A DNA stretch of 32,000 bases from Candidatus Nanopusillus sp. (GTDB lineage Archaea > Nanobdellota > Nanobdellia > Nanobdellales > Nanobdellaceae), in assembly GCA_049414405.1 (NCBI GenBank), contig JBMSAQ010000015.1, positions 60,001 to 92,000 of the forward strand. Direction: 5' to 3'. Shown in pieces: positions 6,561 to 32,000 of the stretch (position 1 is the stretch's first letter; each line of letters opens with the position of its first letter). Under the pieces are notes generated by a model. The model was not told where the DNA came from. It did not search any database and saw only the letters and a program-made list of their open reading frames with translations. The position numbers and the translations under genes are program-made.

Positions 6561-6871
6561 AATCCTAATAATTTTGAAAATTTTATTTCAGCTTCTTCTT
6601 TTGAAAGTTTTTTCTTTACATGTACTTCATGAGCTTTTAAGAAATTTCCTATAATTTTTATATATTCATCTTTATCTTTTGTTTCCATTATCTTTTCATA
6701 TAAAACTTCCTCTTTTAATGCATTTTTTATCCATTCTGGAAAGTGATCCTTATGATAATTAAATTTGTCATAATCCGCATTATATAACCAAATTAATAGA
6801 TCTTGAAGACTATATAGTTTTTGTCCATCAATAGTAATAAATGCTTCTTTTTCATTATCAACTTCAATCAT
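6557..6871 (-). CDS. Small soluble protein of unknown function, first gene of the ParA-GT3 operon
   Basis: 104-aa ORF with a charged, K/E-rich helical C-terminus and no hydrophobic segment. Its stop overlaps the ParA-like start (ATGA). I could not assign a family. Confidence 0.5.
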   Translation of the reverse strand: MIEVDNEKEAFITIDGQKLYSLQDLLIWLYNADYDKFNYHKDHFPEWIKNALKEEVLYEKIMETKDKDEYIKIIGNFLKAHEVHVKKKLSKEEAEIKFSKLLGL

Positions 6872-6907
6872 ATTAAATTTTATATTTTATATCTTTAAAA
6901 AATATTT

Positions 6908-8083: not shown

Positions 8084-9250
8084 TTTCTCTACAGAATTTT
8101 TCCAAGATAAATTTTTTATATCATCCAAACATAACTTTATCTCATATTCTCCCAATTTTGGGTAATATAATAACGCCAATATATAATCTGCCATTTTATT
8201 TATATCCCAAAAGTCAACTGCTAATGCATTCTTCAATACTTCATATACTCCTGTTTGTTTTGATATTATAATAAAATCTTTATATTTTAAAGCTTCGAAT
8301 GGAGTTAAACCAAAAGGTTCTGATACAGATGGTAAAACAAATATATCTGCTATTGAGTATAAATATTCCGCTAAATCATCATCAACCCATCCAGTAAATA
8401 TTACATTTTTTGATATATTTAAATCTGCAGCCATTTTTATCAACTGTTCTAACATTTCTCCAGTTCCTGCAAATATAAATAGTACATCTTTTCTTTTTTC
8501 TAAAACTTTTTTTGCTGCTTTTAATAAATAATCTGGACCTTTATGCATTGTCATCCTTCCAAGATATAATACTATTTTATATTTTTCTTTTATTTTACTA
8601 TTTACTTTTTCTCTTATATTAAAATCATCATCCTGAGCATTATATATCACATCAATTTTCTTCTCGTCACAATTATAATATTTTATCAGTATATCCTTCT
8701 CTCTCTTACTTACTACTATAATTTTATCCGCATATTTACAAACTTCCAATTCTATTCCATAGTCATAATCATATAAGTATTTTAATACATCCGGATTTCC
8801 TCCAACTCTATCATATACTAGAGAATGGAAATGAACAACCAGTGGCTTTTTGTATATTTTCTTTATTTCTATTCCTGCTAAAGCAGTCAACCAGTCATAT
8901 GCATATATTATATCAAAATCTAATTTCATTTTTTTCAATAAATCTATTAATTTATCTTTATATTCAATTACTGCCTTCTTATAGTCTATAATTTTCCTCT
9001 CATGTAAAGTAAAAGATTCATATTTAAAATAATCTACATACGATTGATATACTTTCATATTTAATCCAAAAATTTTTGAGTTCTTTAACCTATTATTCCA
9101 GAAAGATTTTACATCATCAGTCAGATTTAAAATGAATAAATAAACATTATTATTAAAATAATCAAGATATTTCAAATAATAATATGTTACTTTTTCTAAT
9201 CCGCCACCTTTCTGAGGAAATACTCTCCAAGATAAAAATAATATTTTCAT
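8054..9250 (-). CDS. GT-B glycosyltransferase, GT4/GT5 glycogen-synthase-like
   Basis: MKILFLSWRVFPQKGGGLEKV is a GlgA-like N-terminus, and PSVSEPFGLTPFEALKY is an E-x7-E type motif. 398 aa. Confidence 0.8.
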   Translation of the reverse strand: MKILFLSWRVFPQKGGGLEKVTYYYLKYLDYFNNNVYLFILNLTDDVKSFWNNRLKNSKIFGLNMKVYQSYVDYFKYESFTLHERKIIDYKKAVIEYKDKLIDLLKKMKLDFDIIYAYDWLTALAGIEIKKIYKKPLVVHFHSLVYDRVGGNPDVLKYLYDYDYGIELEVCKYADKIIVVSKREKDILIKYYNCDEKKIDVIYNAQDDDFNIREKVNSKIKEKYKIVLYLGRMTMHKGPDYLLKAAKKVLEKRKDVLFIFAGTGEMLEQLIKMAADLNISKNVIFTGWVDDDLAEYLYSIADIFVLPSVSEPFGLTPFEALKYKDFIIISKQTGVYEVLKNALAVDFWDINKMADYILALLYYPKLGEYEIKLCLDDIKNLSWKNSVEKLISIFNSLV

Positions 9251-9272
9251 AATTAAAAAATAAGAAAAATAA

Positions 9273-9280
9273 TTATAAAT
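9273..9280. promoter_or_regulatory. Candidate shared TATA element for divergent leaderless genes
   Basis: TTATAAAT lies in a 50-nt divergent spacer, about 25 nt from the ATG at 9301 (+) and about 26 nt from the start at 9250 (-). Confidence 0.3.
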
Positions 9281-9300
9281 CTTTTAATAAAAATATTTGT

Positions 9301-10905
9301 ATGGAAAAAGAAATTGAATTAGAAAATTTTGATTATGCTATTATATATAACAAAGGTTCTTTTTTGTTTTTGCCTTTACTATATAACAGTAGATATTTTG
9401 GTTTATTACAATATTATAACAACAATTTTATCAAAATATTAGAAAAAATAGAAAATAAAGATATAAATTATAATGAAATTGAAAAGATAATACTAAGGGA
9501 TTATAATAATATAAAGATAATATATAAAGATGGATGGGAAGAATATAAATTAATAGATAATAAATTAATATATAAAACAAATAAATATTCTACATTAAAT
9601 GTTTATTTTGATACAAGATATTTGTATGATATAGATGAATGGGAGAGAATATACAATATTGAAAAAAATAATGATTATGTGAAAATAAAATTTAATAGAA
9701 GGGATTTAAACTATGAAGCAATAATAAAAAGATTTGAAGTATATCAAGAATTAAATAAATGGATAAAAGTAAATTATAATTATGACTTATATAGAAAATC
9801 TCCACCATTTGAAAGATATATATATTTACCATTTTCTTTTTACGCAAAAGAATTAGAAATAATATATAAAAATGATAAAGATAATTTAAATGGAAAAAAT
9901 CTAATTGAAAATGGATTATTATCTTTTATTTATGATAATAACATTTCTGCAGGTCTTCCATGGTATTTCCAAGAATGGAGCAGAGATGTATTGGTTTCAT
10001 TAGGTGGATTATACTACATTAATAAAGACATTGTGAAAAATAAATTAATTGAATATTCAAATTATTTTTTGCCAGATGGGAGATTAAAAAATATAAAAAA
10101 TGAAAATATTGGAAATTCTGATGGAGTAGGATTATATATTTTCAGATTATTTCAATTTAAAGATTTATTTGAAAAAGAAATATTTGATAAATTAGTAAAT
10201 AATATTATTGGAAAGTTAAATATGTTTGAAGAAAATTATTTAGATGAAAAATTATTTTTGTTTAAAGCATATCCAAATGAAACATGGATGGACACATTAA
10301 ATAGAATTTATCCGATAGAAATACAATTTTTAATGGCAAATGCGTATGATAATTTATATAATTATACAAAAAAAGATGAATATAAAGAAAAACTAGAAAA
10401 AATAAAGAATTCAATTAGAAAGAATTACTTATCAGATTCTTCATTATATGATGATATAAAAAATAAAAAGATAAGATGCAACGTATTTTTATCTTATTAC
10501 TTTTATCCAAAGATTTTTTCAAATTATGAATGGGAAAATATATTTGATTATTCATTAACACATCTATATCTAAAATGGGGAGGAATTAGTAGTTTATCTA
10601 TATTTGATAAAGAATTTATTCCATATAGCAATGAAGATAATTATTTTAGAAATGAAGGAAAATCAATGCATAATGGAGATTCATGGATTTTTATAAATAA
10701 CATTGCTGCTACGGATTTACATAATTTAAATAAGGAAAAATACTGGAATATAATAAGTAGTATTTTGAAATCTAATGAAAGATTAATAAAAATGATAGGA
10801 ACATTGCCTGAAAGATCTAGTGCATATGAATTAAAACCGGCAGGGGCCTTACATCAACTGTGGTCAATATCAACTTATATAGAATTATTAAATAATATAA
10901 GATAA
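9301..10905 (+). CDS. Glycogen debranching enzyme homolog (amylo-alpha-1,6-glucosidase, GDE C-terminal type)
   Basis: SAGLPWYFQEWSRDVLVSLGG matches the GYPWF..WGRDT.ISL motif of (alpha/alpha)6 GDE domains. GDSWIFINNIAA occurs near the C-terminus. Confidence 0.75.
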   Translation: MEKEIELENFDYAIIYNKGSFLFLPLLYNSRYFGLLQYYNNNFIKILEKIENKDINYNEIEKIILRDYNNIKIIYKDGWEEYKLIDNKLIYKTNKYSTLNVYFDTRYLYDIDEWERIYNIEKNNDYVKIKFNRRDLNYEAIIKRFEVYQELNKWIKVNYNYDLYRKSPPFERYIYLPFSFYAKELEIIYKNDKDNLNGKNLIENGLLSFIYDNNISAGLPWYFQEWSRDVLVSLGGLYYINKDIVKNKLIEYSNYFLPDGRLKNIKNENIGNSDGVGLYIFRLFQFKDLFEKEIFDKLVNNIIGKLNMFEENYLDEKLFLFKAYPNETWMDTLNRIYPIEIQFLMANAYDNLYNYTKKDEYKEKLEKIKNSIRKNYLSDSSLYDDIKNKKIRCNVFLSYYFYPKIFSNYEWENIFDYSLTHLYLKWGGISSLSIFDKEFIPYSNEDNYFRNEGKSMHNGDSWIFINNIAATDLHNLNKEKYWNIISSILKSNERLIKMIGTLPERSSAYELKPAGALHQLWSISTYIELLNNIR

Positions 10906-12843: not shown

Positions 12844-15132
12844 TCAGTATAAAATAAATATTATTATTCCAACTATTACACCAATCAACAACCCAATATT
12901 TAAATAATTATATTGAACTTTCTTATTGAATTGTACAGTAATATTTAATGGTTGATTCACAATAAAATTATATCCATCCTCATAATAAATTGTATCATAA
13001 AAGAATCCAGATTCAATATACTTGGCTGGTAAAATATTTATTACAGTTCCTTTATTTAAAAAAATAGAAGTATTTCCATAAGTATTTACAGAATTATTTA
13101 TGGAAATATTTACTAAAAATGGTGTATTAATATTTACTAAATATTGATATACACAATAGCTAGATAGATCAATATTTGTTGGAGAGGACATATTTATTGT
13201 TACGTTGTTCTGATTGCAATAAAATCTTTCATAATTATTTATATAACTAATTGTATTTATTAATATAGTTACATTATTATTTGCATTTATATAAAAACTC
13301 GTATTTCCATAATATGTATTATTGTTTATTGTATAATTAAACGGTGAGGATATATTTAATTGATACTGCAAATAACAATAATCAGATATATCAACAACTT
13401 TTGAAGTATTTATATTTAATGTTATGTTATTTTGACAATAATATCGATAATTTTCAAAATTATATATTTGATTTAAGTATATATTCAACAGATCTTTTGC
13501 ATAAAGATAATATATATTATTATAATGTGTTTCATTTAAATAATTTCCAGAAATTGTAAAATTTATTCCAATACTGTTATTTATAATAACTAAATAATAT
13601 TTAATATAGTTTGTAGAGATATTATAATCCTTATTTACTAGCAGACTTATATTTACATACTGATGGGAATAATCTATACTATAATATACCCCGTTTATTG
13701 TTAAATTACTTAATACATATAATGTATTGTTTTGATAAACATATATTGGAATTTTCACATTAAAGATTAGCCCAAGTGGATATTGATAATTTATGTATGA
13801 GTTGTTGTAAGAATAATAAACAGATATATTATAGTTTGTGATATTTGCATTTCCTAAATACTTTGGATAAAAAGGTCCTACAGATAAATTTACAAATCCT
13901 TGCGATATTATATTCGCACTAATATTTGAAGAATATTCTGCAGTATTAGCACCATAATTAAATATTGAAGGACTTGGGGTAAGATAATAACTTCCATTAT
14001 TTTTATAAGAATAATATAAACCCAAAAATCCACTAATATTTTTTACATCTATACAAGCCCCATTTCCTGGTCCACCAATAACCAATTCTAAATTCTTAAT
14101 ATTTCTAGAACTTGTAAAATTGGGAAAAATAACTATACTACCATTTGACGGAATTAATAATGTAACATTATCGTACCAATTTATATTTTGTCCATCTAGA
14201 CTATAACCAAATTGTATTACTGGATGGGAATTATTTTGAGTAATATTTATTATTAAATATACATTTAATGGATATTGTAAAGAAAAATGATTTGTTGCAT
14301 ATACATAAAAATATTTATCATCATATTTACTTATTATTCCATTACCTTTAATTAAATTATTCGATGATAGATTATGATTAAAAGAGGTAAAATTCCATAT
14401 ATTATTAGCAAAAATAAAATATCTACCGGTATTGTTTATTAATAAAACATTCTGTAACCAATAATGTTGGCCATTACTTAATTCTAGAATCGCATTTAAT
14501 TGTATTGAGCCCGAATCCTCACCTAAAAAAGTATTAGAACATAAAGAACTAACATATGAACTAAAATTATCTAAATAAATTTTTCCAATAACTTTATTTG
14601 TCTTAACATTATATCCATAAACGATTCTATTGTTAATATATATACCATAATCAGAAATTCCTATTGGAAAATAAATATTTTTTTCAGATTGATTTGTCAA
14701 ACTATATATAAAAAAATAAGATGCATTTTGTGTATTGTTATTATAAATTATTATGTAATAATTTTCTGAAGATAGATTTATACTTTGATTTATATAATTT
14801 GTATATCTTTGATAGATTGATGTAAAATTTTCGCTGTTTTTAAAATTTTGATAATTTTGTTGATCCATTATATAAAAATTTAAAGGAATTGATGAACTAA
14901 AATATATGTTTAAATACTGGTTTGATGAATTTATCAAATAATAATAATAATATTCTGGATATAAAATATAAAAATAACCATAAGAACCTTGTTCCAAATT
15001 ATATAAATTTAGATGACTTATATTTATTGGATTTATTGGAACATTAAATAATGTTGATGAATAATTTTGTGAATATATATTAAAAAAATTAGATATCAAA
15101 GTTAATAATGCAAATAGTTTTATTTTTTTCAT
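12844..15132 (-). CDS. Thermopsin-family (peptidase A5) secreted protein with a duplicated Cys-containing C-terminal module and a C-terminal membrane anchor
   Basis: Signal peptide MKKIKLFALLTLISNFFNIYSQ. Thermopsin-like blocks are FPIGISDYGIY, GSIQLNAILE...HYWLQNVLL...FANNIWNFTS and LVIGGPGNGA...LGLYYSY...PSPSIFNYGANTAEY (compare Sulfolobus thermopsin AGIASFGLY, LQFNIVL..YWLQDV..DNVWNLT, VWGGGGNGA..LGLYY..FGADTAEA). I counted more than 40 N-x-S/T sequons by eye. The C-terminal helix is IGLLIGVIVGIIIFILY. Confidence 0.8.
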   Translation of the reverse strand: MKKIKLFALLTLISNFFNIYSQNYSSTLFNVPINPINISHLNLYNLEQGSYGYFYILYPEYYYYYLINSSNQYLNIYFSSSIPLNFYIMDQQNYQNFKNSENFTSIYQRYTNYINQSINLSSENYYIIIYNNNTQNASYFFIYSLTNQSEKNIYFPIGISDYGIYINNRIVYGYNVKTNKVIGKIYLDNFSSYVSSLCSNTFLGEDSGSIQLNAILELSNGQHYWLQNVLLINNTGRYFIFANNIWNFTSFNHNLSSNNLIKGNGIISKYDDKYFYVYATNHFSLQYPLNVYLIINITQNNSHPVIQFGYSLDGQNINWYDNVTLLIPSNGSIVIFPNFTSSRNIKNLELVIGGPGNGACIDVKNISGFLGLYYSYKNNGSYYLTPSPSIFNYGANTAEYSSNISANIISQGFVNLSVGPFYPKYLGNANITNYNISVYYSYNNSYINYQYPLGLIFNVKIPIYVYQNNTLYVLSNLTINGVYYSIDYSHQYVNISLLVNKDYNISTNYIKYYLVIINNSIGINFTISGNYLNETHYNNIYYLYAKDLLNIYLNQIYNFENYRYYCQNNITLNINTSKVVDISDYCYLQYQLNISSPFNYTINNNTYYGNTSFYINANNNVTILINTISYINNYERFYCNQNNVTINMSSPTNIDLSSYCVYQYLVNINTPFLVNISINNSVNTYGNTSIFLNKGTVINILPAKYIESGFFYDTIYYEDGYNFIVNQPLNITVQFNKKVQYNYLNIGLLIGVIVGIIIFILY
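13018..13458 (-). repeat. Tandem duplication of a roughly 73-aa Cys-pair module inside the thermopsin-like gene (aa 559-705)
   Basis: FENYRYYCQNNITLNINTSKVVDISDYCYLQYQLNISSPFNYTINNNTYYGNTSFYINANNNVTILIN aligns with NNYERFYCNQNNVTINMSSPTNIDLSSYCVYQYLVNINTPFLVNISINNSVNTYGNTSIFLNKGTVINILP. Both Cys positions and the YGNTS motif are conserved. Confidence 0.75.
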
Positions 15133-17212: not shown

Positions 17213-18739
17213 TTAATCAATATAAATTCTAGGCATTACACCATTTGGAGGCATAAATCTCACTCTAGCCCAGTACCAGGTACTTATCATTGTACCTTCC
17301 ACTGAATAAGCACCTATCACATAATAATTATATTTCTTTATACGACCTTGAGACCCTATAGAATTAATTTTATAGTTTAATCCTACTCCTCTATTATTTG
17401 CATAATCCCAATATACTGAAACTATAGAATCTGCCATAGGATACTCATTATATGAATAACCATAACTCGATGTAAGTGATCCTACAGCAATACCACCATG
17501 ATTATCTCCAACATACCTGACTGGTTGATATCCAAAGCCATCTTTTTCATATGGGGTATTATTAATGTATACACCAATACCATGACCACCACGGGAACCT
17601 CGTACTGTATAAGAGGCTAAATAAGCATCGAAGATTGTATCTGGAGGGAAATCTGATAATGTAAACAATCCAGCCCATGATCTAGAAGTGGATGAATTGA
17701 TAGTTAATCCGTTATTTACTGTTATGGTTGCACCATATAAACTGGCTCTCCATTTACTCATATCAAATATTATTCCAGCGAAATTATCATAGAATAAAAA
17801 TACATATTCTCCATTATCATATTGTCCATATGTTGGGGATAAATGTGGTGCTTGTCCTACATAGGGGTAATATTGTTGGTAATAGTCTGTATCATTAGAT
17901 CCTATGTACATATGTGCTGTTACATAACCGTAAGGAGATATTCCATTTGGTAATTTTACCCACCATACATAACATGCAATTTCTCTATGACCCATTCGAC
18001 CTTCATACCATAATTGACCTTCATACCATGAATATAAGATATTACCATCACTATCTGTAAACATTACATTTTGTCCATTTGGATTTATTTGATTAAACAA
18101 TGTTGCATTATTTATGTAGGAGAAGCTATTAACTATATTTACACTTCCATTACATATTGCTATCTGTTGTTGGAATGGAGATTGTGTTGGAATAGATTGA
18201 ACATTGTATATTACTATTGGAATGTGCAATAAATTATCAGAACCATTAGAGCTAGTAGAACTTTCATTATAAACTACATTATTAGAATTATCAAAATTAG
18301 AAACATATACAAAATTAAACCTATTGTCATCTGATACTGCATAATTATAAATAACCCCGCCATATATAAAACTTGTATTTATAATATACGCAGTAGAATT
18401 ATAATGACAAGTCTTATCTATTATATGACACAAACTGTTTCTTCCCGAAGGAATCACATTTCCTGCATCACATGCGACACTACTTCCGTTTATAAGTACA
18501 ACATTTCCATTATTATCTATGAAGATTATTTGATAATCACTTACATTTATTTGTGTGCTTCCATTATTGTAGATATCAAAATATATGGTATTATTTAAAC
18601 AATATACACTATTTATTACAAATGATGTATGCTGGGGTTGTTGCATAATTATGTTAGTATACACATAATATGTTCCTGCAGCCGCAGCTGCTATACCAAC
18701 TATTATTATAATTAGAACTATTGGGGCAATTGTTCTCAT
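17213..18739 (-). CDS. Surface protein with a DUF2341-like plus LamG/concanavalin-like region and a pilin-like N-terminal helix
   Basis: N-terminus MRTIAPIVLIIIIVGIAAAAAGTYYVY. MFTDSDGNILYSWYEG...IACYVWWVKLPNGISPYGYVTAHMYIGSN resembles the DUF2341 pattern (F.D.DG..L.YW.E...A.vWVK.P...iY.YYGN). FYDNFAGIIFDMSKWRA resembles the LamG-type FDDF.g..ld..kW pattern. The C-terminal block is WYWARVRFMPPNGVMP. Confidence 0.6.
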   Translation of the reverse strand: MRTIAPIVLIIIIVGIAAAAAGTYYVYTNIIMQQPQHTSFVINSVYCLNNTIYFDIYNNGSTQINVSDYQIIFIDNNGNVVLINGSSVACDAGNVIPSGRNSLCHIIDKTCHYNSTAYIINTSFIYGGVIYNYAVSDDNRFNFVYVSNFDNSNNVVYNESSTSSNGSDNLLHIPIVIYNVQSIPTQSPFQQQIAICNGSVNIVNSFSYINNATLFNQINPNGQNVMFTDSDGNILYSWYEGQLWYEGRMGHREIACYVWWVKLPNGISPYGYVTAHMYIGSNDTDYYQQYYPYVGQAPHLSPTYGQYDNGEYVFLFYDNFAGIIFDMSKWRASLYGATITVNNGLTINSSTSRSWAGLFTLSDFPPDTIFDAYLASYTVRGSRGGHGIGVYINNTPYEKDGFGYQPVRYVGDNHGGIAVGSLTSSYGYSYNEYPMADSIVSVYWDYANNRGVGLNYKINSIGSQGRIKKYNYYVIGAYSVEGTMISTWYWARVRFMPPNGVMPRIYID

Positions 18740-18787: not shown

Positions 18788-18871
18788 TGCGGCGGAGGGG
18801 ATTTGAACCCCTGGCGGATCTTATCCAATCGGACCTAAACCGACCCCCTTTGACCTCTCGGGCACCGCCGC
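18788..18871 (-). tRNA. tRNA-Leu (anticodon UAG), class II with long variable arm
   Basis: The reverse complement folds as acceptor GCGGCGG/CCGCCGC, anticodon arm GUCGG-UUUAGGU-CCGAU, a 15-nt variable arm UGGAUAAGAUCCGCC, T arm AGGGG-UUCAAAU-CCCCU and discriminator A. 84 nt. Confidence 0.9.
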
Positions 18872-23937: not shown

Positions 23938-25125
23938 ATGGCGAAGAGTTCACCACCTTACATAAAATATATGATATATGCGTCAGTATATATTGATGGG
24001 GTAGTTGAGAAACCAGATGTAATAGGAGCAATATTTGGACAAACAGAAGGATTATTGGGATCAGAAATGGATTTAAGAGAATTACAAAGATCTGGAAAAG
24101 TTGGAAGAATAGATGTAAATCTTAGAGTAGAAAATGATAAAACAATAGGAGAAATTAGGATACCAACAAGTTTAAATAGATTTGAGACTACATTAATTGC
24201 TGCAACATTAGAAACTGTAACAAGAATTGGACCAACACACGCAACAATAAAAGTACAAAAAATAGAAGATATAAGAAAAACAAAAGTACAACAAATATTA
24301 GAAAGAGCTAGAGAATTATTAACAAAATTAGTAAATGAAGAATTACCAGATCCAAAAGAATTACTATTATATTTAGAATATTCACATAATATGAAATCAC
24401 TAATTGAATATGGACCGGAAAAATTACCTGCAGGACCAGATGTAGATAAATCAGAAGAAATAATATTGGTAGAAGGAAGAGCAGATGTTTTAAATTTATT
24501 AAGATACGGGATTACAAATGTAATAGCATTAAACGGATTAAATGTACCAAAAACATTAGTTGATTTATCAAAGAAAAAGATTGTAATAACATTCTTTGAT
24601 GGGGATAGGGGCGGAGATTTATTAGTAAAAGAATGTATGTTAAGTGGTGTTGATATTGATTTTGTAGCAAAACCAGAACCTGGTAGAGAAGTTGAAGAAT
24701 TATCTGGAAAAGAAATATTAAAAGCTCTAAAGAATAAAATATCATTTGATCAGATTAGAGCATATTATGAAAAATTAGAAGGAAATATTGAAGATGTAAG
24801 AAATGTTAGGAATGAAAAAAAAATAAAAGATCCAATATTACAAAAACTAAAGTCGTATATCAATGATATATTTAAAACTGATCAGGCTTTATTATTGGAT
24901 GAACACTTCAATATATTAAATAAAGTACAAGTAGATAAATTGGGGGAAATAATATTAAAATATAATAATTTATCTTATTTAGTAATGGATGGTATATTAA
25001 CAAGAGAATTATTGGAATTAATAGAAAAGAGTACAAATATAAAATATATAGTATGTATAGATAGTATACAGAAAAGTAGTAATAAAGTAAAGATATATAC
25101 AATAAGCGATCTTGATAAAGTCTAG
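23938..25125 (+). CDS. dnaG: Archaeal DnaG (TOPRIM primase-like, exosome-associated)
   Basis: The N-terminal YASVYIDGVVEKPDVIGAIFGQTEGLLG..DLRELQRSGKVGRI and the TOPRIM motifs ILVEGRADVLNLLRYGITNVIALNG and FFDGDRGGDLL are present. Confidence 0.93.
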   Translation: MAKSSPPYIKYMIYASVYIDGVVEKPDVIGAIFGQTEGLLGSEMDLRELQRSGKVGRIDVNLRVENDKTIGEIRIPTSLNRFETTLIAATLETVTRIGPTHATIKVQKIEDIRKTKVQQILERARELLTKLVNEELPDPKELLLYLEYSHNMKSLIEYGPEKLPAGPDVDKSEEIILVEGRADVLNLLRYGITNVIALNGLNVPKTLVDLSKKKIVITFFDGDRGGDLLVKECMLSGVDIDFVAKPEPGREVEELSGKEILKALKNKISFDQIRAYYEKLEGNIEDVRNVRNEKKIKDPILQKLKSYINDIFKTDQALLLDEHFNILNKVQVDKLGEIILKYNNLSYLVMDGILTRELLELIEKSTNIKYIVCIDSIQKSSNKVKIYTISDLDKV

Positions 25126-25595
25126 CTTTTTTCTATCTGATAATTTATTATTCCACTGATAGAATTATTTCCTACAGATGAATAATATAATGTTAAATAT
25201 AAAACCCCTCCAAGTCTTTCCCATTGGGTAATTGTCAGTCTTGTTTGTTCATCCAATTCAAAATTATATTGTATAGTAATATAGCTATTTGGTTGTATTA
25301 TATATATGTTCTGTAAAAAATTTCCAGAGGTTACTATTGAAGATGTCTGGTATGAATTCTTTAATCCTAAAAGTGAGAAATAAATTTCAACAGAATAATT
25401 GTTCGGGTTATTTACATTAAAAGAAAAATAATTCTCACTCACTGTAAAATTTGATATATATAGATCATATATATTTTTAGGATTTACCATCTTATTCCCA
25501 CTAAAATATGTTGAATATGAATAATATATTAGGTAAATTACTGGTATAGAAAATGCTAAGAATAATAAATTTAATATTATCTTTTCTTTATCCAT
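25122..25595 (-). CDS. N-terminally anchored small protein with a predicted beta-rich ectodomain, unknown function
   Basis: 157 aa with one N-terminal hydrophobic helix (ILNLLFLAFSIPVIYLIYY), then alternating polar/hydrophobic beta-like sequence carrying N-x-S/T sites. Its stop overlaps the dnaG stop by 4 nt. Confidence 0.5.
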   Translation of the reverse strand: MDKEKIILNLLFLAFSIPVIYLIYYSYSTYFSGNKMVNPKNIYDLYISNFTVSENYFSFNVNNPNNYSVEIYFSLLGLKNSYQTSSIVTSGNFLQNIYIIQPNSYITIQYNFELDEQTRLTITQWERLGGVLYLTLYYSSVGNNSISGIINYQIEKS

Positions 25596-25600
25596 AATAT

Positions 25601-26197
25601 ATGGATGAATTTAATAAATTAAAAATATATCATATAAAAAAATACAAAGAAGCAAAAGAAAAATATTTAGTAGACCAACCAATATATTATATTTTAGATT
25701 TTATTAACTCATTAGACTTCTTTTTTACAACATCTTCATGTGCTGGTAGGATAATTTTACTAAAAATACCAAAAAGTGGAAAAAAATTTGAAGCAGAATT
25801 TTTATTTAAATCTCATTATTATGTAAACTTTTATTATATATGGAATAAATTATTAGATGTATATAAAAATTATGATGAGAAAATATATTTCAAACAAGAA
25901 CCATTTATTCTACATGTATCTTCAAAAAACATAGAAAAAGCATATGAACTATTAAATATTGCAAGAAAATCTGGGTTTAAACATTCCGGAATATTCTTAA
26001 TAGATGATAAAAGAGTGATGGTTGAAATTGTGGGAAATGAAAAAATTGAAACGATTGTATCAAAAAATAAAAAACTATTAGTAAGTAAAGAATATTTTTA
26101 TAATTTAGTAAGAGAAGCAAATGAAAAATTAAAGAATGTAAGAAAAAGAATAGATATATTTTATAAAAATCTTTTATCCTATTATATAACAGTATGA
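25601..26197 (+). CDS. taw3: tRNA wyosine-derivative methyltransferase Taw3 (TYW3 family)
   Basis: FFTTSSCAGRIILL (the TYW3 SSC-x-GR motif), KQEPFILHVSSKNIEKAYELLNIARKSGFKHSGI and VMVEIVGNEKIETIV are collinear with the TYW3 domain. Confidence 0.85.
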   Translation: MDEFNKLKIYHIKKYKEAKEKYLVDQPIYYILDFINSLDFFFTTSSCAGRIILLKIPKSGKKFEAEFLFKSHYYVNFYYIWNKLLDVYKNYDEKIYFKQEPFILHVSSKNIEKAYELLNIARKSGFKHSGIFLIDDKRVMVEIVGNEKIETIVSKNKKLLVSKEYFYNLVREANEKLKNVRKRIDIFYKNLLSYYITV

Positions 26198-27676
26198 GTC
26201 ATCACAATAATTGTCTATTGTTTCATTATTTATTTTTACAAATTTATATAAATAATAATTGTACATAAATTGATTATTTATATATGATTCTACAACATAA
26301 CATTTAGCATTAAAATAATAATTTCCATTATCATTATAACATCCAAATTCGCTTATTGTACATATATTTGGCAAAAGGATTTTCAACAAGTTTTGTGATG
26401 ATAAACAGTTAAAATCATTATCATATGGTCCAAATTTTATTGTTTGATTATTTATAGAACAACTGACATTACTATAATTTATTTGAATATTTAAAGGTAC
26501 TAAAGCTGGATAATATCCACCAGTATAATATGTATATCTTTCTAAAACATTTTCTACAAAGCTTCTACTAACTTTTACATTTTTTTCAGTACTAATACTT
26601 GCATTAGTTATATTATACCAATATCCATTGAATATATTTACCTCATCTAATACTTGATAATTAAAAATAGATAAAATTTGACTTGTATTTAAATATGAGC
26701 ACGCATACATGTATTCAAAATATTCATCATCTATTATGCATTGATTATTAACAATTTGTCCTACTGATTCACATGGTATTACAATTGTCACATTTGTAAT
26801 ATTTGGATATTGTACTGGTAAAAGTTGAGATGTATATAAATCTAAAACATAGTAATATGTATTATTAAATGATAAGTTTAAGTATAAATTATCACCAATT
26901 GTTTTTTTAGAATATGAACTATTATATAAATGTATGTAATTTGATTGGTTTGTTAAATTATAATATATAAATTGAAATGTTCTATTATACAAATAACCGA
27001 TTAATTTATTATAGTACAGTAAATATGGATATATTGGATATTCTATCATATAATTTAGCTGTGGAAAAGCCACATTTCTTTCATATTTATTTAATACAAA
27101 GAATGTATATTGTGGGTTTGATAGTATAAAACTATTTTTAGAAATATCATAATAGAAAGTTTGATATGAAAAATTTGCATATTTAAAATTTAAATTTGCA
27201 TTTAAATATTTGATTTCTTCCCTTAGGTCTTGATTTACAATATTCCCAATATTACCAAGTAAATTTATTATATTTTGGTAATTATTTACATTATCTAAAG
27301 GAATCATTGGAACGCATAATGAATAATTTATATTATAATTATTTTCATTACTTTCTACACTTTTTAAATTAAATAAAAGAGGTACTTGACATTGTGAATA
27401 ATAATTAGGGATATTATTTCCAAATACATAATTTATATTATATGTAGATCCTAAAAAAATATTTGTTAAAAGGTTATTTAATAAATTATATCTAATATCA
27501 AACGGTATATAAACGAATAATAAATATAAAAATCCTTGATATGCAATATAGTCTTCACTTAAATATTTTAAAGATTCTGTCGCAATTTGAATTTGAGAAT
27601 TTAAATAATATATACCAAAGACAGTTAAAATTATTACGCCCATAAACAATGCAATTGGTGCTAAAGATGTTTTCAT
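26174..27676 (-). CDS. Large N-terminally anchored, Cys- and sequon-rich surface protein (orphan), last gene of the operon
   Basis: 500 aa. The N-terminus MKTSLAPIALFMGVIILTVFGIYY is pilin-like (basic residue, A-P-I, long helix). It has many N-x-S/T sites and a C-terminal third with at least 10 Cys (NVSCSINN...FNCLS...NICTISEFGCYND...AKCYVV...NYCDDSYCY). It overlaps the taw3 3' end by 24 nt. Confidence 0.6.
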   Translation of the reverse strand: MKTSLAPIALFMGVIILTVFGIYYLNSQIQIATESLKYLSEDYIAYQGFLYLLFVYIPFDIRYNLLNNLLTNIFLGSTYNINYVFGNNIPNYYSQCQVPLLFNLKSVESNENNYNINYSLCVPMIPLDNVNNYQNIINLLGNIGNIVNQDLREEIKYLNANLNFKYANFSYQTFYYDISKNSFILSNPQYTFFVLNKYERNVAFPQLNYMIEYPIYPYLLYYNKLIGYLYNRTFQFIYYNLTNQSNYIHLYNSSYSKKTIGDNLYLNLSFNNTYYYVLDLYTSQLLPVQYPNITNVTIVIPCESVGQIVNNQCIIDDEYFEYMYACSYLNTSQILSIFNYQVLDEVNIFNGYWYNITNASISTEKNVKVSRSFVENVLERYTYYTGGYYPALVPLNIQINYSNVSCSINNQTIKFGPYDNDFNCLSSQNLLKILLPNICTISEFGCYNDNGNYYFNAKCYVVESYINNQFMYNYYLYKFVKINNETIDNYCDDSYCYIIG

Positions 27677-27708
27677 ATAAATTCAATTATGTTTCAATAT
27701 TATTAATT

Positions 27709-28197
27709 TTAAGGATGAATATAACGAACATAAAAGCTATAATTTACATAAAAGTTGTATAATACTGTTGGTGGACAAACATAAAATGTATGGGGTTTAC
27801 CATTCAAATAAACTATATACTCTATATATCCTCTATTTGGACATGCTCCAATTATTGTACTATTATCTAAATAAAATGTTATAATTGTAGCAGAATTATT
27901 TAGATAGTATAATACATTATTTGTTAATTCATTTATTATATGATCATTCAACGCTTTATTATTACTAAATCCTGCATAAATATCTATTACAGGTACTGTT
28001 ACATTATTAAAATAAATTAGAGAACTTAAAAAACCATTTGCAGATTTATATTCAATACCAACAGCATTTAAACTAGCTATATTATTTAATACTGGATTTC
28101 CGAATGAAAATATACTAAAGATAAATATAAAGAATAACGCTATAATAATTATTATAGCAATAACAAATGATAAAAAGAAACCTATCTGTATCTTCAT
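27709..28197 (-). CDS. N-terminally anchored small protein (orphan), operon member
   Basis: 162 aa. The N-terminal helix is IGFFLSFVIAIIIIIALFFIFIFSIF, followed by a beta-like ectodomain with N-x-S/T sites and 2 Cys (GACPNRG...YVCPP). It has an ATGA overlap with the upstream gene. Confidence 0.55.
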   Translation of the reverse strand: MKIQIGFFLSFVIAIIIIIALFFIFIFSIFSFGNPVLNNIASLNAVGIEYKSANGFLSSLIYFNNVTVPVIDIYAGFSNNKALNDHIINELTNNVLYYLNNSATIITFYLDNSTIIGACPNRGYIEYIVYLNGKPHTFYVCPPTVLYNFYVNYSFYVRYIHP

Positions 28198-29042
28198 TGT
28201 ATTTTAGTGGCTTTACATGAAGATATATTTATCTGGCCTCCAGCAATCATATCACATATCATATTATATATACCATTCATGTAAAGATATCCTACCCCAT
28301 ATAAAGATACTATTACAGGTTCTCCACTATTATATTCGGGTAAAACAATATAATATGACACTAATGGGTGAATATACACTTCATCATAATAAAAACCCCC
28401 ATATCCTACAGAACTAATTATTATTTCATTATTTATGATTTCGTAGTTTCGGTATATATTTCTTGTCTCATTATATATGTATAAACTATAATTATGGAAA
28501 TAGTTGATCAAAAATTGGTTTAAGGCTGGTAAATTTCCATCATATGTATAATTAATGTTATAAATATTATATGCAACCTTGTATGGAACTACACTTATGT
28601 TATACTTAAAACTAAGATTATATGGGTCATAAGAATATGACTTATTTATATTGTTAATATTATAGAAAAAGAAATATATATAACTATTATAAGAAAAGTT
28701 TAGATATGTATATTTAAGTTTGTTTGATTCATTTGATTGATTAATAAAATAATGGAATGTTCCGGACATATTCATAAAGCATTTTTGATATGTATCATTA
28801 TATTTATTTATAATATTTGTATTTGGTGCATAAAACAATAAAAAAGGATTTTTTGTACTTTCATATAAACAATAATTTAACCTATCTATTAATAAACTAT
28901 TTGTAAATTGCTGAAACATATATTGTGAATATGATTCTATATTAAAAAATGCATATAATAGTGCTATAACAAAAAATACGAATATTATAACAACTGCGGC
29001 AGCTATATATTCTATTATATCCTTTAAAGATAAAGCCCTCAT
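28194..29042 (-). CDS. N-terminally anchored N/Y-rich protein (orphan), operon member
   Basis: 282 aa. The N-terminus is MRALSLKDIIEYIAAAVVIIFVFFVIALLYAFF, where the IIEY followed by a long helix is reminiscent of the Flp/TadE-type AIEY motif. It carries many sequons and 4 Cys, and has an ATGA overlap with the upstream gene. Confidence 0.55.
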   Translation of the reverse strand: MRALSLKDIIEYIAAAVVIIFVFFVIALLYAFFNIESYSQYMFQQFTNSLLIDRLNYCLYESTKNPFLLFYAPNTNIINKYNDTYQKCFMNMSGTFHYFINQSNESNKLKYTYLNFSYNSYIYFFFYNINNINKSYSYDPYNLSFKYNISVVPYKVAYNIYNINYTYDGNLPALNQFLINYFHNYSLYIYNETRNIYRNYEIINNEIIISSVGYGGFYYDEVYIHPLVSYYIVLPEYNSGEPVIVSLYGVGYLYMNGIYNMICDMIAGGQINISSCKATKIQ

Positions 29043-30148
29043 GATTTAGAAGATAATATTGATACATTTAAATATGGGCCTCCGTATTCTGAACCAACTT
29101 TTGATAAAATAATGAACTGTGGATATACTTCACGACCTTTATCATTTATATTTCCTAAAATTACTTTAAATATATTGTTTTGTGTTTTATCATTTGGATT
29201 ATAAATATACCTAAAGCTTAGATCACATAAATAAGGATCCTTACATTCATTATAAAATGTAAAATTTGGATTATAATATATTGGTAACGTTAAATACGGG
29301 TGGTATACTGTATATTTTGCACTTGGAAGTATGGAATTTTTATTATCCTCATTTATAAATTTATTATAATAACAACCTACATGTGGGTTAGATGTAAACT
29401 GAAGATATTTAATTATTGTGATTGCTGAAGTAAATGCTAAATTAAACGCAACAGCAGCAAAAAAACCTGCTGGAAATGGCATAATTTGCATCAATATCAT
29501 ATCTACAACTTGCATTTTGGTAAATATAGCGGTAAACCATATGGTAGGTCCCACTGATGATTGTAATGCATTGAAAATATTACCCCAAATATTTTGATTC
29601 CCATATGAATATTGTAAATATGCGGATTGTGCTGTATAAAATGCATACGTACCAGCAAAGTTCATTACTGTTTGTTTAGCAATTGCTGGTGTAGATTTAT
29701 ATACATTATTTAAAGCTGATAAAACTTTCGATAAAGCATTAGTACCACCAGCCTTTAATCCTGGCACATATGCAGATACTGCAACTATAAAAGATTCTAT
29801 TGCATTATATGCAAGCTCATGCCATAGATCATATACATAACATACCCCAATACTAATAAGAAAATTGTTATTATCATATAATGGGTTTGGTGGTGAATAA
29901 GAAGGTGTTGGCGGCGTTATTCTAAATTCATAGAAAAAGACTGGCTCGTTAGTTAATAAAAATGCAGCATTTATATTTCCAGGCTCAGATGTAGAATATA
30001 CAATAAAACTAGCAACTTCTAATACTAAATGTGGATTGTGTGTACCAAATATTCTTGCAACAATATATGGAAAATATATTCCTATTAATGATACAATTAT
30101 TAAAAATATTGATGCTATTATTGCATCTAATAATTCATCTAGATCCAT
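29039..30148 (-). CDS. Polytopic membrane protein with a C-terminal Cys-containing ectodomain (orphan), operon member
   Basis: 369 aa. The N-terminal MDLDELLDAIIASIFLIIVSLIGIYF places the D-A-I-I-A-S hexamer ahead of a helix. There are about 4 further hydrophobic segments (for example MQIMPFPAGFFAAVAFNLAFTSAITII), a Pro-rich linker TPPTPSYSPPNP, and a tail containing GCYY..NECKDPYLCD. Confidence 0.55.
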   Translation of the reverse strand: MDLDELLDAIIASIFLIIVSLIGIYFPYIVARIFGTHNPHLVLEVASFIVYSTSEPGNINAAFLLTNEPVFFYEFRITPPTPSYSPPNPLYDNNNFLISIGVCYVYDLWHELAYNAIESFIVAVSAYVPGLKAGGTNALSKVLSALNNVYKSTPAIAKQTVMNFAGTYAFYTAQSAYLQYSYGNQNIWGNIFNALQSSVGPTIWFTAIFTKMQVVDMILMQIMPFPAGFFAAVAFNLAFTSAITIIKYLQFTSNPHVGCYYNKFINEDNKNSILPSAKYTVYHPYLTLPIYYNPNFTFYNECKDPYLCDLSFRYIYNPNDKTQNNIFKVILGNINDKGREVYPQFIILSKVGSEYGGPYLNVSILSSKS

Positions 30149-30149
30149 A

Positions 30150-31079
30150 TTATTTTGGAATAGTTGCTCCTATATATATGTTAATATCTGCTGTTTTTTT
30201 ATCTTTATTACTATATATATCCATATATATTGCTGTTGGTGGTAAAGAGCCTGCAAAATACAATATTGGGAAATCTATCCCAAATATATTTTCAAAAATA
30301 TTACCAAACGTGGCAGCTTTTATAATCTCACCTACAAGATTACTATAAGATATTTGAGAGTTTCTTGGAAATCCTGATAATATCACACATTTTGATGGAT
30401 TATATGGTAAATTTTGACTTTCATAATCTATATTTTGGTTTGGAGCACAATATATTTTATCACCTCCGACATTTGGAGACGTAAATTTACATCCATTATT
30501 ATTACATGTTATTGTAGTATCATTTACTATAGTAAGAACCATTGAAGATGTTGAAAAGAAAAGATCTGTTATACTTATAAAAATTTGAAATTTATTAGAT
30601 AAATCTTTATTGGAAGAGTATGCTAGCAAACCAGCATCAACATTTAATCCTTGTATTTTTATATTTATTTCATCTACATTTAAAGATCTTTGCTTTATTA
30701 ATTTACAATATTCTAATGCTGGCGCAAATATGACAGTCTTTCCATTATCTACGGTAGAAACATTCCAATAGGCTATTTTAACAGATAATGCACCTACAAC
30801 TTGATTTGGAGGTAAACAACGATATAATTGTAAGTACCACCCATCTTTATTTGTCAATACAAAAACATAATTGTAATCATAATTATTTATAAATACTCTT
30901 CCATAATTTTTGTTATTTTTGTCATTTATACTATCAGCAATTGAATTTAAATATCCAACGTATCTTGCCTCATCTCCCATTGCTATTCCAATAAACACCA
31001 TAATAATATAAAATATTAAAACTGCCAGTACAATTAATATTATTATATCAAAAATTATTCTAAGAAAATTATTCTTCAT
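30150..31079 (-). CDS. N-terminally anchored Cys-containing protein (orphan), operon member
   Basis: 309 aa. The N-terminal helix is LRIIFDIIILIVLAVLIFYIIMVFIGIAMG, and the ectodomain has 6 Cys (RCLPP, EYCKL, ITCNNNGCKF, IYCAPN, SKCVIL). There is a 1-nt gap to the genes on each side. Confidence 0.55.
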   Translation of the reverse strand: MKNNFLRIIFDIIILIVLAVLIFYIIMVFIGIAMGDEARYVGYLNSIADSINDKNNKNYGRVFINNYDYNYVFVLTNKDGWYLQLYRCLPPNQVVGALSVKIAYWNVSTVDNGKTVIFAPALEYCKLIKQRSLNVDEINIKIQGLNVDAGLLAYSSNKDLSNKFQIFISITDLFFSTSSMVLTIVNDTTITCNNNGCKFTSPNVGGDKIYCAPNQNIDYESQNLPYNPSKCVILSGFPRNSQISYSNLVGEIIKAATFGNIFENIFGIDFPILYFAGSLPPTAIYMDIYSNKDKKTADINIYIGATIPK

Positions 31080-31080
31080 A

Positions 31081-31242
31081 TTATCCCAATCCTGATCGAT
31101 TTAGTAAATCGTATCCAACGTTAGTCGCATTCACTTGCATAGAGTTATTTACTATATTATAATAAAATAATATTGCTAAAACAATTATTACCAATGCTAT
31201 TATTAAAAATATTAAAAAGTTTATTGAATTATTAGCCTCCAT
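31081..31242 (-). CDS. 53-aa single-helix protein (not in the supplied ORF track)
   Basis: Hand translation of the minus strand gives MEANNSINFLIFLIIALVIIVLAILFYYNIVNNSMQVNATNVGYDLLNRSGLG*. The ATG (31242-31240) overlaps the end of the 61-aa ORF by 11 nt. The TAA stop (31083-31081) lies 1 nt before the next ATG. Confidence 0.45.
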   Translation of the reverse strand: MEANNSINFLIFLIIALVIIVLAILFYYNIVNNSMQVNATNVGYDLLNRSGLG

Positions 31243-31417
31243 AGTTATTTGTATTTATACTATTTACAATATTTGTGCCATTTGTTTGGGGTATACTATT
31301 GAATAAATTTACTCCACCTTTGAAATAAAAGTACATAAACATTACTAATAATACTAAAGCAACTATAAATAATATTACTGCTATTAAAAAGGTATTTACC
31401 TCTGTTTTTTTATCCAT
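31232..31417 (-). CDS. 61-aa single-helix protein, operon member
   Basis: MDKKTEVNTFLIAVILFIVALVLLVMFMYFYFKGG... A strong Shine-Dalgarno sequence (TAGGAGGAA) ends 2 nt before the ATG. Confidence 0.55.
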   Translation of the reverse strand: MDKKTEVNTFLIAVILFIVALVLLVMFMYFYFKGGVNLFNSIPQTNGTNIVNSINTNNYGG

Positions 31418-31556
31418 TTCCTCCTATTAATTGATATTTAGCAAATATATTTATATTTAGCCCTATTTTTGGCCCTATTATAATAAAAACAAATATTAAT
31501 ATTAATACAATAAATACTAATGCCAAAATTATCTTTAAAAGCTCCCCTGTTTCCAT
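31410..31556 (-). CDS. 48-aa single-helix protein (not in the supplied ORF track), first gene after the candidate promoter
   Basis: Hand translation of the minus strand gives METGELLKIILALVFIVLILIFVFIIIGPKIGLNINIFAKYQLIGGNG*. Its stop overlaps the start of the next ORF by 8 nt (ATGGATAA). Confidence 0.45.
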   Translation of the reverse strand: METGELLKIILALVFIVLILIFVFIIIGPKIGLNINIFAKYQLIGGNG

Positions 31557-31576
31557 TATAAATCTAAAAACTTTGT

Positions 31577-31586
31577 AATTTATAAA
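31577..31586 (-). promoter_or_regulatory. Candidate TATA box for the small-protein/surface-protein operon
   Basis: The minus-strand TTTATAAATT starts immediately after the TAG stop of the upstream ORF. It is centred about 25-26 nt upstream of the ATG at 31556, which is a leaderless geometry. Confidence 0.3.
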
Positions 31587-32000
31587 CTAACTTTCGCCTG
31601 AAATTGCTGTTAATACAATTACCCTATTTCCTCCTTCATACGTATATTGTATTATCATACCATTTGGTAATCTCATATTACCTGGAATAATCATAACCCG
31701 ATCTGGTGAAGGATTACCTTCAGTTGAACTTAGTTGTTTAACATTATCACCTTGACCTTGACCTTGATATACTCTAAATGAATTTACCAATAGTTTATTA
31801 TATACATTTGATGTTTGTGGATTTGATAACATTATTTTACTATTTACATTACTTAATACCCGACATGGAATATTGTCATTACTATTCTTTATTACATTGT
31901 TTCCATACATAACTTCCAATGGGATATAATCATAATATCTCATCATTCCCAACATACACAAAACGTCATTTAATGTAACATTATATTTACTATTATAATC
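31587..32000 (-). CDS. C-terminal part of an unknown protein (5' end beyond the window)
   Basis: The listed start at 31961 is a TTG, and the frame remains open to base 32000 (...DYNSKYNVTLNDVLCMLGMM...). No motif was recognised, and the sequence is soluble and N/G/Q-rich. Confidence 0.45.
   Translation of the reverse strand, partial: DYNSKYNVTLNDVLCMLGMMRYYDYIPLEVMYGNNVIKNSNDNIPCRVLSNVNSKIMLSNPQTSNVYNKLLVNSFRVYQGQGQGDNVKQLSSTEGNPSPDRVMIIPGNMRLPNGMIIQYTYEGGNRVIVLTAISGES

Follow-up and report, generated by a model that had tools for sequence, protein, structure and literature searches.

Which proteins form the structure through which a nanoarchaeal ectosymbiont reaches its host? The Nanobdellales, the former terrestrial Nanoarchaeota, tap a host archaeon via a large organelle, with a tube into the host cytoplasm. 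The question is raised here by a gene cluster on the minus strand at positions 26174 to 32000 of a 32,000-nucleotide (nt) stretch of Candidatus Nanopusillus sp. (assembly GCA_049414405.1, contig JBMSAQ010000015.1, positions 60,001 to 92,000), which is referred to as the window. An earlier note, made from the letters of the window, had described a tightly coupled operon of eight membrane-anchored orphan proteins and proposed it as an undescribed cell-surface, filament or host-contact apparatus of a small-genome ectosymbiotic archaeon. The source organism is indeed of that kind, namely of the Nanopusillus/Nanobsidianus type.

The cluster is a real and tightly packed operon, well above chance, of nine genes for helix-anchored, putatively glycosylated and disulfide-bonded surface proteins. 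It is chromosomal and vertically inherited, and it belongs to the Nanobdellales alone, occurring there in Nanopusillus, Nanobsidianus, Nanobdella, YN1 and deeper hot-spring lineages; no relatives were detected beyond this order. The products are best explained as subunits of a pilin-like filament or of a pseudopilus that serves host contact, a reading to which a rough probability of 0.35 is assigned; the link of the operon to host contact is circumstantial. The proposal of an undescribed surface apparatus is reasonable and partly supported, and two alternatives named with it, a provirus and a filament locus with its machinery in the adjacent DNA, are refuted.

Organization of the cluster

Eight minus-strand open reading frames (ORFs) lie at the coordinates claimed for them, with overlaps and gaps exactly as first described. 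The gene count of eight did not hold: there are nine, since p400 opens the cluster. The features, with lengths in amino acids (aa) and transmembrane (TM) helices where given, are:

31587..32000, minus strand: 3' end of p400 (last 137 codons and stop); the frame is open to the window edge and full-length orthologs occur in relatives
31579..31586, minus strand: TATA-box-like TTTATAAA, 23-30 nt upstream of the p48 ATG and directly after the p400 stop
31410..31556, minus strand: p48, tiny single-helix protein; acidic N-terminus METGELL...; 21-aa tail
31232..31417, minus strand: p61, tiny single-helix protein; basic leader; conserved N-G-T/N-E-T sequon in the tail
31081..31242, minus strand: p53, tiny single-helix protein; conserved N-x-T sequon in the tail
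30150..31079, minus strand: p309, N-terminal helix and 6-Cys ectodomain; orthologs Nst1_043, Nps_00235, MJ1_0046, YN1_3880
29039..30148, minus strand: p369, acidic N-terminus and one TM helix; orthologs Nst1_044, Nps_00240, MJ1_0047, YN1_3890
28194..29042, minus strand: p282, leader MR[AS], then LSLKDIIEY and a hydrophobic helix; orthologs Nst1_045, Nps_00245, MJ1_0048, YN1_3900
27709..28197, minus strand: p162, small and helix-anchored; orthologs Nst1_046, Nps_00250, MJ1_0049, YN1_3910
26174..27676, minus strand: p500, the largest member; leader MKTS, then LAPIAL; orthologs Nst1_047, Nps_00255, MJ1_0050, YN1_3920
25122..25595, minus strand: p157, N-terminal-helix protein on the same strand; only the opposite-strand TYW3 lies between it and the operon

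The tiny ORFs p48, p61 and p53 overlap by 8 and 11 nt, single-nucleotide gaps occur at 31080 and 30149, and ATGA overlaps at 29039-29042 and 28194-28197. The sole larger gap, of 32 nt at 27677-27708, precedes p500 and contains a TATA-like element kept in Nanopusillus and YN1. The overlaps and 1-nt gaps indicate genes that are translationally coupled and read as one transcription unit, which favors the reading as a pilin-like subunit set.

The first gene, p400, encodes a short basic leader, an N-terminal helix, Gly/Ala-rich hydrophobic helices and a Cys-containing C-terminal domain; its full-length orthologs measure 395-423 aa (Nst1_039, Nps_00225, MJ1_0042, YN1_3840). A TATA-like element stands at an equal distance from p48 in all Nanopusillus/Nanobsidianus loci and in YN1, MJ1 and two deep lineages, L013 and L018. 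Because this distance is conserved across lineages, p48 is suggested to head a transcription unit. TTTATAAA is probably the promoter of the unit from p48 to p162 or p500, with the reservation that TATA-like motifs are frequent in DNA of 24% guanine plus cytosine (GC).

On the downstream side, p157 is possibly a tenth gene of the cluster. It is always syntenic and better conserved than the operon proteins, and has no Pfam or NCBIfam match. The intervening TYW3 (25601-26197, plus strand) is convergent with p500 and overlaps its 3' end by 24 nt. The starts of TYW3 and of the minus-strand p157 are only 5 nt apart (window 25595-26197), therefore each promoter must lie within the coding region of the other. 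This arrangement, together with the 60 nt upstream of p157, is conserved in most lineages examined.

Membrane anchors, cysteines and sequons

A single hydrophobic helix at the N-terminus, preceded by only a very short leader, anchors each product. The hydrophobic segment announced for every product was found throughout, with a maximum Kyte-Doolittle 19-residue mean of 2.4-3.9 located within residues 4-31. The description of p369 as polytopic was not borne out. Its second hydrophobic peaks are borderline (1.8-1.9), its structural model has one N-terminal helix, and the published TMHMM analysis gives one TM domain for the ortholog Nps_00240 of N. acidilobi.

The cysteine content is raised, as had been claimed, at 1.73% in the five large proteins vs 0.49% in 23 other ORFs of the window, and the Cys positions are invariant across relatives. 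In p162 there is an invariant pair (C119/C141), p282 has four Cys in its ectodomain, and five of the 12 Cys of p500 are invariant in all lineages. The claim that the larger proteins are packed with N-x-S/T sequons stood in part. Per 100 aa, p282 carries 4.3, p500 3.4, p162 2.5 and the tiny p53 7.5, against a background of 1.0 (12 sequons in the p282 ectodomain, 17 in p500 and four in p162), whereas p309 (0.6) and p369 (0.5) are not enriched. The conservation of N-glycosylation sequons and Cys pairs places the bulk of each protein outside the cell. The description as a coupled operon of orphan, N-terminally helix-anchored proteins with conserved ectodomain Cys and sequons can be retained.

A 508-aa orphan elsewhere in the window (17213-18739, minus strand) starts with MRTIAPIVLIIIIVGIAAAAAG, an archaeal-pilin-like N-terminus. 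It has 13 sequons and six Cys, without a Pfam match, and may be of the same class of helix-anchored surface proteins.

Absence of known families

Neither Pfam, NCBIfam, PHROGs and PDB sequence profiles nor Foldseek gave a significant match, in agreement with the first impression that no known family is present. The Pfam, NCBIfam and PHROGs searches covered all products and divergent orthologs, with nothing above threshold; p400 has no Pfam or PHROG match. Searches of PDB sequence profiles with profiles of p162, p369, p500 and the fused p61-p53 protein described below returned chance matches only.

An identity with the archaellum FlaF/FlaG accessory set or with known S-layer (surface-layer) components had been named beforehand as a finding that would overturn the proposal. 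Nothing of the kind was found: models for archaellin, FlaF/FlaG (ArlF/ArlG) and S-layer domains have no Pfam or NCBIfam match in the cluster. The archaellum genes of N. acidilobi lie elsewhere (Nps_00925-00940), and the proposed S-layer genes occupy other loci in MJ1 (MJ1_0160, MJ1_0707) and in YN1 (YN1_5000, YN1_2560).

Distribution and evolution

Synteny across related genomes was one of the checks suggested in the earlier note, and the cluster is kept in all 12 related loci. The order shared by all relatives is p400, three tiny proteins, and then products of about 300, 370, 300, 160 and 500 aa. Downstream follow, also in all relatives, TYW3 (opposite strand), p157, DnaG (opposite strand) and the fructose-bisphosphate (FBP) aldolase/phosphatase, and then a ribosomal P protein, a coiled-coil protein and AlaRS. 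The relatives that carry this housekeeping context include N. acidilobi, Nst1, Nanobdella aerobiophila MJ1 and YN1, and the locus tags of the cluster are Nst1_039-047, Nps_00225-00255, MJ1_0042-0050 and YN1_3840-3920.

Homologs of p369, p500 and p400 come from hot-spring metagenomes and from Candidatus Nanopusillus/Nanobsidianus genomes only, and a scan of one genome per GTDB species yielded seven loci, all of them Nanopusillus/Nanobsidianus. For p369 there are 55 homologs at 55-89% identity, plus distant ones by profile search. Among 1.84 billion representative proteins, the profile search returned ten proteins altogether, some of them more distant, and no member of the p369 family outside this clade or in any other archaeon. 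The distant matches led to MJ1 (AP019769.1), to YN1 (AP031373.1, via p500) and to three deeper uncultured lineages.

These data bear on the suggestion that a spindle-shaped or filamentous archaeal virus, integrated or cryptic, has its structural module in the cluster. Such a virus would also combine very small hydrophobic proteins with large glycosylated, Cys-rich ones, but the resemblance is only general and the explanation is scarcely credible. The housekeeping flanks are identical in 12 of the 12 related loci, in lineages whose core proteins are only 56-84% identical, and the same context in every relative excludes a provirus. No integrase lies within 10 kb, and a direct-repeat search around the Nst1 locus found no att-like flanking repeats. 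There is likewise no PHROG family, no IMG/VR contig and no BFVD structural neighbor of the p369 model. The GC content of the cluster is the same as in the rest of the window, which is about 24% throughout.

The operon proteins change several times as fast as the housekeeping genes beside them, in the manner of surface proteins, and this also favors the pilin-like subunit set. Within Nanopusillus/Nanobsidianus the operon proteins are 63-76% identical and the flanking housekeeping proteins 92-95%; to MJ1 and YN1 the corresponding values are about 30-45% and 68-84%. The N-terminal 35 aa are better conserved than the remainder in p48, p369, p282 and p400. Little weight is given to this comparison, because an I/L/V-rich composition inflates identity.

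The three tiny proteins and a natural fusion

The ratios of nonsynonymous to synonymous substitution rates (dN/dS) are 0.25 for p48, 0.21 for p61 and 0.23 for p53, which denotes purifying selection. These values and the retention in every lineage establish the tiny ORFs as real genes. The p48 protein is 85-96% identical in seven genomes and is also present in MJ1, YN1, L013 and L018. The p53 protein is weakly paralogous to p61 and to an upstream protein of 60-62 aa in relatives. In an all-against-all comparison of the ten families with hhalign, the pair p61 and p53 gave the only inter-family signal (probability 29%, E 1e-4). BLAST cross-matches among p282, p500, p162 and p157 were treated as compositional, and hhalign found no such paralogy.

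In the window and in most lineages p61 and p53 are separate genes. In the two deep lineages their orthologs form a single in-frame ORF (L013 5544-5888, 114 aa; L018 2596-2922, 108 aa), with two hydrophobic helices and a strongly basic stretch between them. Such a fusion implies that p61 and p53 physically interact. By its layout the hairpin resembles conjugative pilins of the VirB2/CedA1 type more than type IV pilins.

The fusion brings in another possibility, a lipid-containing tube like a conjugative pilus (VirB2/CedA1/TedC type), in which the p61+p53 hairpin would be the pilin and p369 or p400 would be VirB5/VirB6-like. The positive-inside rule gives the fused proteins of 114 and 108 aa a VirB2-like topology. 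The organelle tube measures 7-8 nm, a width comparable to the 7.4-8.7 nm of the conjugative pili that have been solved from archaea and bacteria (Beltran et al. 2023, PMC9905601), although the filament diameter cannot discriminate them from type IV pili. The Ced/Ted DNA-import pili (PMC9905601) also have small helical pilins that are unprocessed or simply processed, the Ced pilins being apparently exported unprocessed, and the p61-p53 fusion corresponds to their two-helix form. On the other hand, no VirB4/HerA-type ATPase and no VirB6-like polytopic protein is encoded in the cluster or in its 10-kb flanks. The p61-p53 profile matches no solved pilin, and the helices are separate proteins in most lineages. 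Foldseek also aligned p369 with the R388 VirB5/VirB6 stalk, but only at noise level (E 0.8-3, probability no higher than 0.06). A conjugative-type tube is considered improbable.

Predicted structure of p369 and p500

For p369 an AlphaFold2 model was obtained from a 36-sequence alignment, with a mean predicted local distance difference test (pLDDT) of 75.6 and a predicted TM-score (pTM) of 0.70. The model starts with a helix at residues 3-34, followed by a break and a second helix at 41-52. Residues 59-107 and 278-368 then make up a beta domain, and between its two parts lies a helical insertion (108-269). The insertion ends in a Gly/Ala-rich, moderately hydrophobic hairpin (about residues 199-253), which is kept in distant homologs, e.g. 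SGGIGLAVAVAANFLINAV and TGIGIVVVFLANFAIGLA. The first 80 residues are nearly invariant, and four Cys of the protein are invariant. The hairpin is reminiscent of fusion peptides or of a hidden membrane-insertion hairpin.

When the p369 model was compared with PDB and BFVD by Foldseek, no structure matched at E<=0.001. The fold is predicted confidently and has no structural neighbor in either database by this method. The p500 model is poor (pLDDT 50.4, pTM 0.37) and starts with a low-confidence helix at 6-74; the fold search with p500 is uninformative for this reason.

A possible pilin-like filament or pseudopilus

In the preferred reading the products join as subunits in one assembly outside the cell, with the construction of a type IV filament or a pseudopilus. 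The three helix-only proteins (43-63 aa) would pack via their N-terminal helices into a core fiber. The five or six larger glycoproteins (p400, p309, p369, p282, p162 and p500) would be minor, initiating or tip subunits, among which p369 would contribute the helical insertion with its buried hydrophobic hairpin and p500 a large Cys-rich distal element. The assembly would be powered by a secretion ATPase and TadC-FlaJ pair encoded elsewhere in the genome. The structure may serve the contact with the host archaeon, either as the 7-8 nm tube or portal of the organelle or as the second, 15-nm appendage seen on free cells. In favor of this reading also count the N-terminal pattern described below, N-terminal helices that are kept in their sequence and not just in their hydrophobicity, the selection on the tiny proteins and the fusion of two of them, the N-terminal helices in the p369 and p500 models, and the occurrence of the operon in MJ1 and YN1.

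Operons of minor pilins or pseudopilins are known from several systems: GspH-I-J-K of the type II secretion system, FimU-PilVWXE/PilY1 of type IV pili and ComGC-GG of the Com system. They can lie apart from the ATPase and platform genes. The present operon is like them in its co-translated genes, in products with a short leader and a 20-25-residue hydrophobic helix, in a size gradient from very small to large and in the presence of a large distal protein (p500). The helical insertion in the beta domain of p369 recalls the one described for GspK, a likeness that Foldseek did not confirm. In contrast to the minor (pseudo)pilins, the products have no sequence or Foldseek similarity to them and a degenerate cleavage motif; two members are acidic and leaderless (p48 and p369), and three are essentially helix-only.

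Archaeal adhesive type IV pili and pili of the Flp/Tad or Epd type (PMC4858521) offer a second comparison, with tiny, near-helix-only, glycosylated pilins. The ATPase/TadC pairs of such pili are present in Nanobdellales genomes too. However, the operon differs from archaeal type IV/Flp pili by having no Class_IIIsignal, Pilin_N or Flp match and by not being located beside an ATPase or TadC gene.

The leaders were compared family by family. Seven of the ten families begin with 2-8 leader residues that include K/R, followed by a small residue (S, G, A or T) and then by 20-25 hydrophobic residues. This N-terminal pattern resembles that typical of class III (prepilin) signal peptides, the resemblance being one of architecture. 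Textbook class III motifs occur in some orthologs, i.e. (slash, putative cleavage site) MKKG/VSD in MJ1 p400, HKG/QIS in MJ1 p61 (N-terminus MAYHKGQIST), MKG/QLS in p162 of lineage L019, RKRG/SLAP in YN1 p500 and MRKA/VST in a 54-aa paralog of L018. The leader of YN1 p282, MRA/L, also has the canonical K/R-G/A. The p48 (METGELL) and p369 (MDLDELL) proteins have instead an acidic residue at positions 3-5 before the helix.

Several observations weigh against a pilin-like assembly. The [KR][GA] cleavage motif is conserved in no family, and the residue at -1 is mostly Ser, sometimes T, N or Q. When 64 ortholog N-termini were scanned singly, only generic single-TM families were matched, and no Pilin_N, Class_IIIsignal or flagellin; the N-termini of divergent orthologs had no pilin-model match at E<=1. 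The only match to a pilin model is sub-threshold, MJ1_0046 (p309) to Pfam Pilin_N with E 0.019 and 16.3 bits vs a cutoff of 25.2. The PDB sequence profiles gave no pilin match, and neither GspK nor another pilin was among the top 50 Foldseek matches of p369. In Nst1, N. acidilobi, MJ1, YN1 and L013, the 10 kb flanking each side of the cluster contain no gene for an ATPase, a platform protein or a peptidase. A two-helix hairpin such as the p61-p53 fusion is hard to reconcile with the extraction of both helices as type IV pilins. Architecture by itself is weak evidence, because a large share of the genes listed for N. acidilobi encode proteins with a single N-terminal helix. Finally, the published whole-cell proteome of N. 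acidilobi contains no peptide from the cluster, a result to be read with the proviso that heavily glycosylated, K/R-poor membrane proteins would easily be missed by tryptic proteomics. With the models unmatched and the motif unconserved, the proteins are not filed as type IV pilins.

The earlier suggestion of ATPase and platform genes past base 32000 had to be abandoned, as the 10 kb upstream in relatives are without an ATPase, TadC/FlaJ, peptidase or integrase. Located there are the genes for p400, for a pair of orphan surface proteins in the opposite orientation, for a glycoprotein of 780-870 aa and for VKOR, with ribosomal and RNA polymerase genes beyond VKOR. In the genome of N. acidilobi the gene table lists several VirB11-type ATPases together with TadC/T2SS-F (type II secretion system F) proteins, in at least three ATPase/TadC sets (Nps_01175, Nps_02245/02250, Nps_03250-03260), with no pilin or prepilin peptidase annotated. 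No recognizable prepilin peptidase has been reported for nanoarchaea (PMC4858521; N. acidilobi gene table), the enzyme being missing in two of them (PMC4858521), and Makarova et al. 2016 (PMC4858521) state that no cognate pilins could be assigned to the nanoarchaeal ATPases.

A second conserved module was observed upstream in relatives (L004 1419-4686; L015 3935-6486; L016 599-3617). It consists of VKOR, a 60-62-aa protein and a 780-870-aa protein. The 60-62-aa protein is a p53/p61 paralog (38-45% identity), and its 780-870-aa partner is heavily glycosylated with a similar N-terminus. The conservation of this module makes the surface-protein island larger than the operon. The disulfide-forming VKOR lies near the cluster in relatives and is absent from the MJ1 stretch examined.

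The attachment organelle and host contact

The attachment organelle has been described as a cone of repeating units that replaces the S-layer, with a portal of about 20-25 nm, a barrier, and a tube or filament 7-8 nm across that extends into the host (PMC11104419, PMC11420986, bioRxiv 10.64898/2026.06.04.730037). Cryo-electron tomography (cryo-ET) of MJ1, YN1 and YN4 showed archaella and the attachment organelle, and in MJ1 a second appendage of unknown identity. That the host-contact machinery is molecularly undefined, as had been asserted, is confirmed by three cryo-ET studies from 2024-2026, which state that the organelle proteins are unknown. An orphan, clade-specific surface operon fits this gap. 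MJ1 and YN1, the strains imaged with the organelle and extra appendages, both have the operon, which is a matter of co-occurrence only.

The operon occurs in the same clade as the organelle, which is a structure on the outer face of the symbiont membrane with repeating protein units and a thin tube. Other orphan surface clusters in the same genomes are equally eligible. It is doubtful, though far from fanciful, that the operon encodes parts of the organelle, with the tiny helices as the 7-8 nm tube, the large ectodomains as portal, barrier or cone, and the p369 hairpin breaching or fusing the host membrane. If this holds, the operon would encode a machine that bridges two cells and to which none of the known secretion, pilus or fusion systems is detectably related.

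A part of the organelle need not be a filament. The products could form a membrane-anchored lattice of the cone, or the portal or barrier, replacing the S-layer at the contact site, and the Gly/Ala-rich hairpin of p369 might then conceivably insert into the host membrane like a fusion peptide or a translocator. The cone lies on the outer face of the symbiont membrane, shows repeating densities and is made of proteins not yet known; all subunits of the operon are membrane-anchored ectodomain proteins. The operon is conserved in MJ1 and YN1, both with the organelle, and the p369 family is confined to the clade among the representative proteins searched. The confident p369 fold without PDB or BFVD neighbor, with a conserved hydrophobic hairpin in its helical insertion, is also what such a part might look like. 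However, the clade distribution may be mere phylogeny, and many other orphan single-TM clusters exist in these genomes. A lattice of about 8.5e4 nm2 needs an abundant monomer, but no product was detected in the N. acidilobi proteome, and no cluster gene is among the top-expressed genes named in the searched text of the MJ1 and YN4 studies. A non-filamentous organelle part is held to be unlikely, while deserving serious attention.

Rather unlikely, too, is a housekeeping envelope complex unrelated to the host, e.g. for S-layer anchoring or assembly, as an accessory of glycoprotein export, or as a scaffold of the envelope or of division. The strictly syntenic position among core genes (TYW3, DnaG, FBPase, AlaRS), found in every lineage, and purifying selection would suit such a function, and in relatives the adjacent orphan glycoproteins and VKOR suggest an island of general surface biogenesis. 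Nevertheless, the cluster proteins diverge much faster than the core genes and have no detected homolog in other archaea, though all archaea have envelopes. Moreover, the literature names different genes for the putative S-layer proteins of MJ1 and YN1.

The operon provides a short and testable candidate list for a recognized open question, with locus tags in the cultivated MJ1 and YN1, and its merits are that the products are clade-specific, extracellular, multi-subunit and encoded by tightly coupled genes. Should part of it belong to the tube, the portal or an unrecognized pilus, the connection between DPANN archaea and their hosts would become directly testable. Were it only a housekeeping envelope complex, it would still be an undescribed nine-protein surface assembly, of local interest.

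Other features of the window

A thermopsin-domain protein (12844-15132, minus strand; Pfam E 5e-53) carries 45 N-x-S/T sequons. The MJ1 study proposed thermopsin-like proteins as possible degraders of the host S-layer. At 18788-18871 (minus strand) ARAGORN reports a tRNA-Leu(tag) that Rfam does not report at gathering score; the other three tRNAs are reported. The region 4282-10905 is a glycogen-metabolism block with a debranching enzyme (GDE_C domain), glycosyltransferases and a ParA/MinD-like ATPase, and is colinear with Nps_00360-00385 of N. acidilobi.

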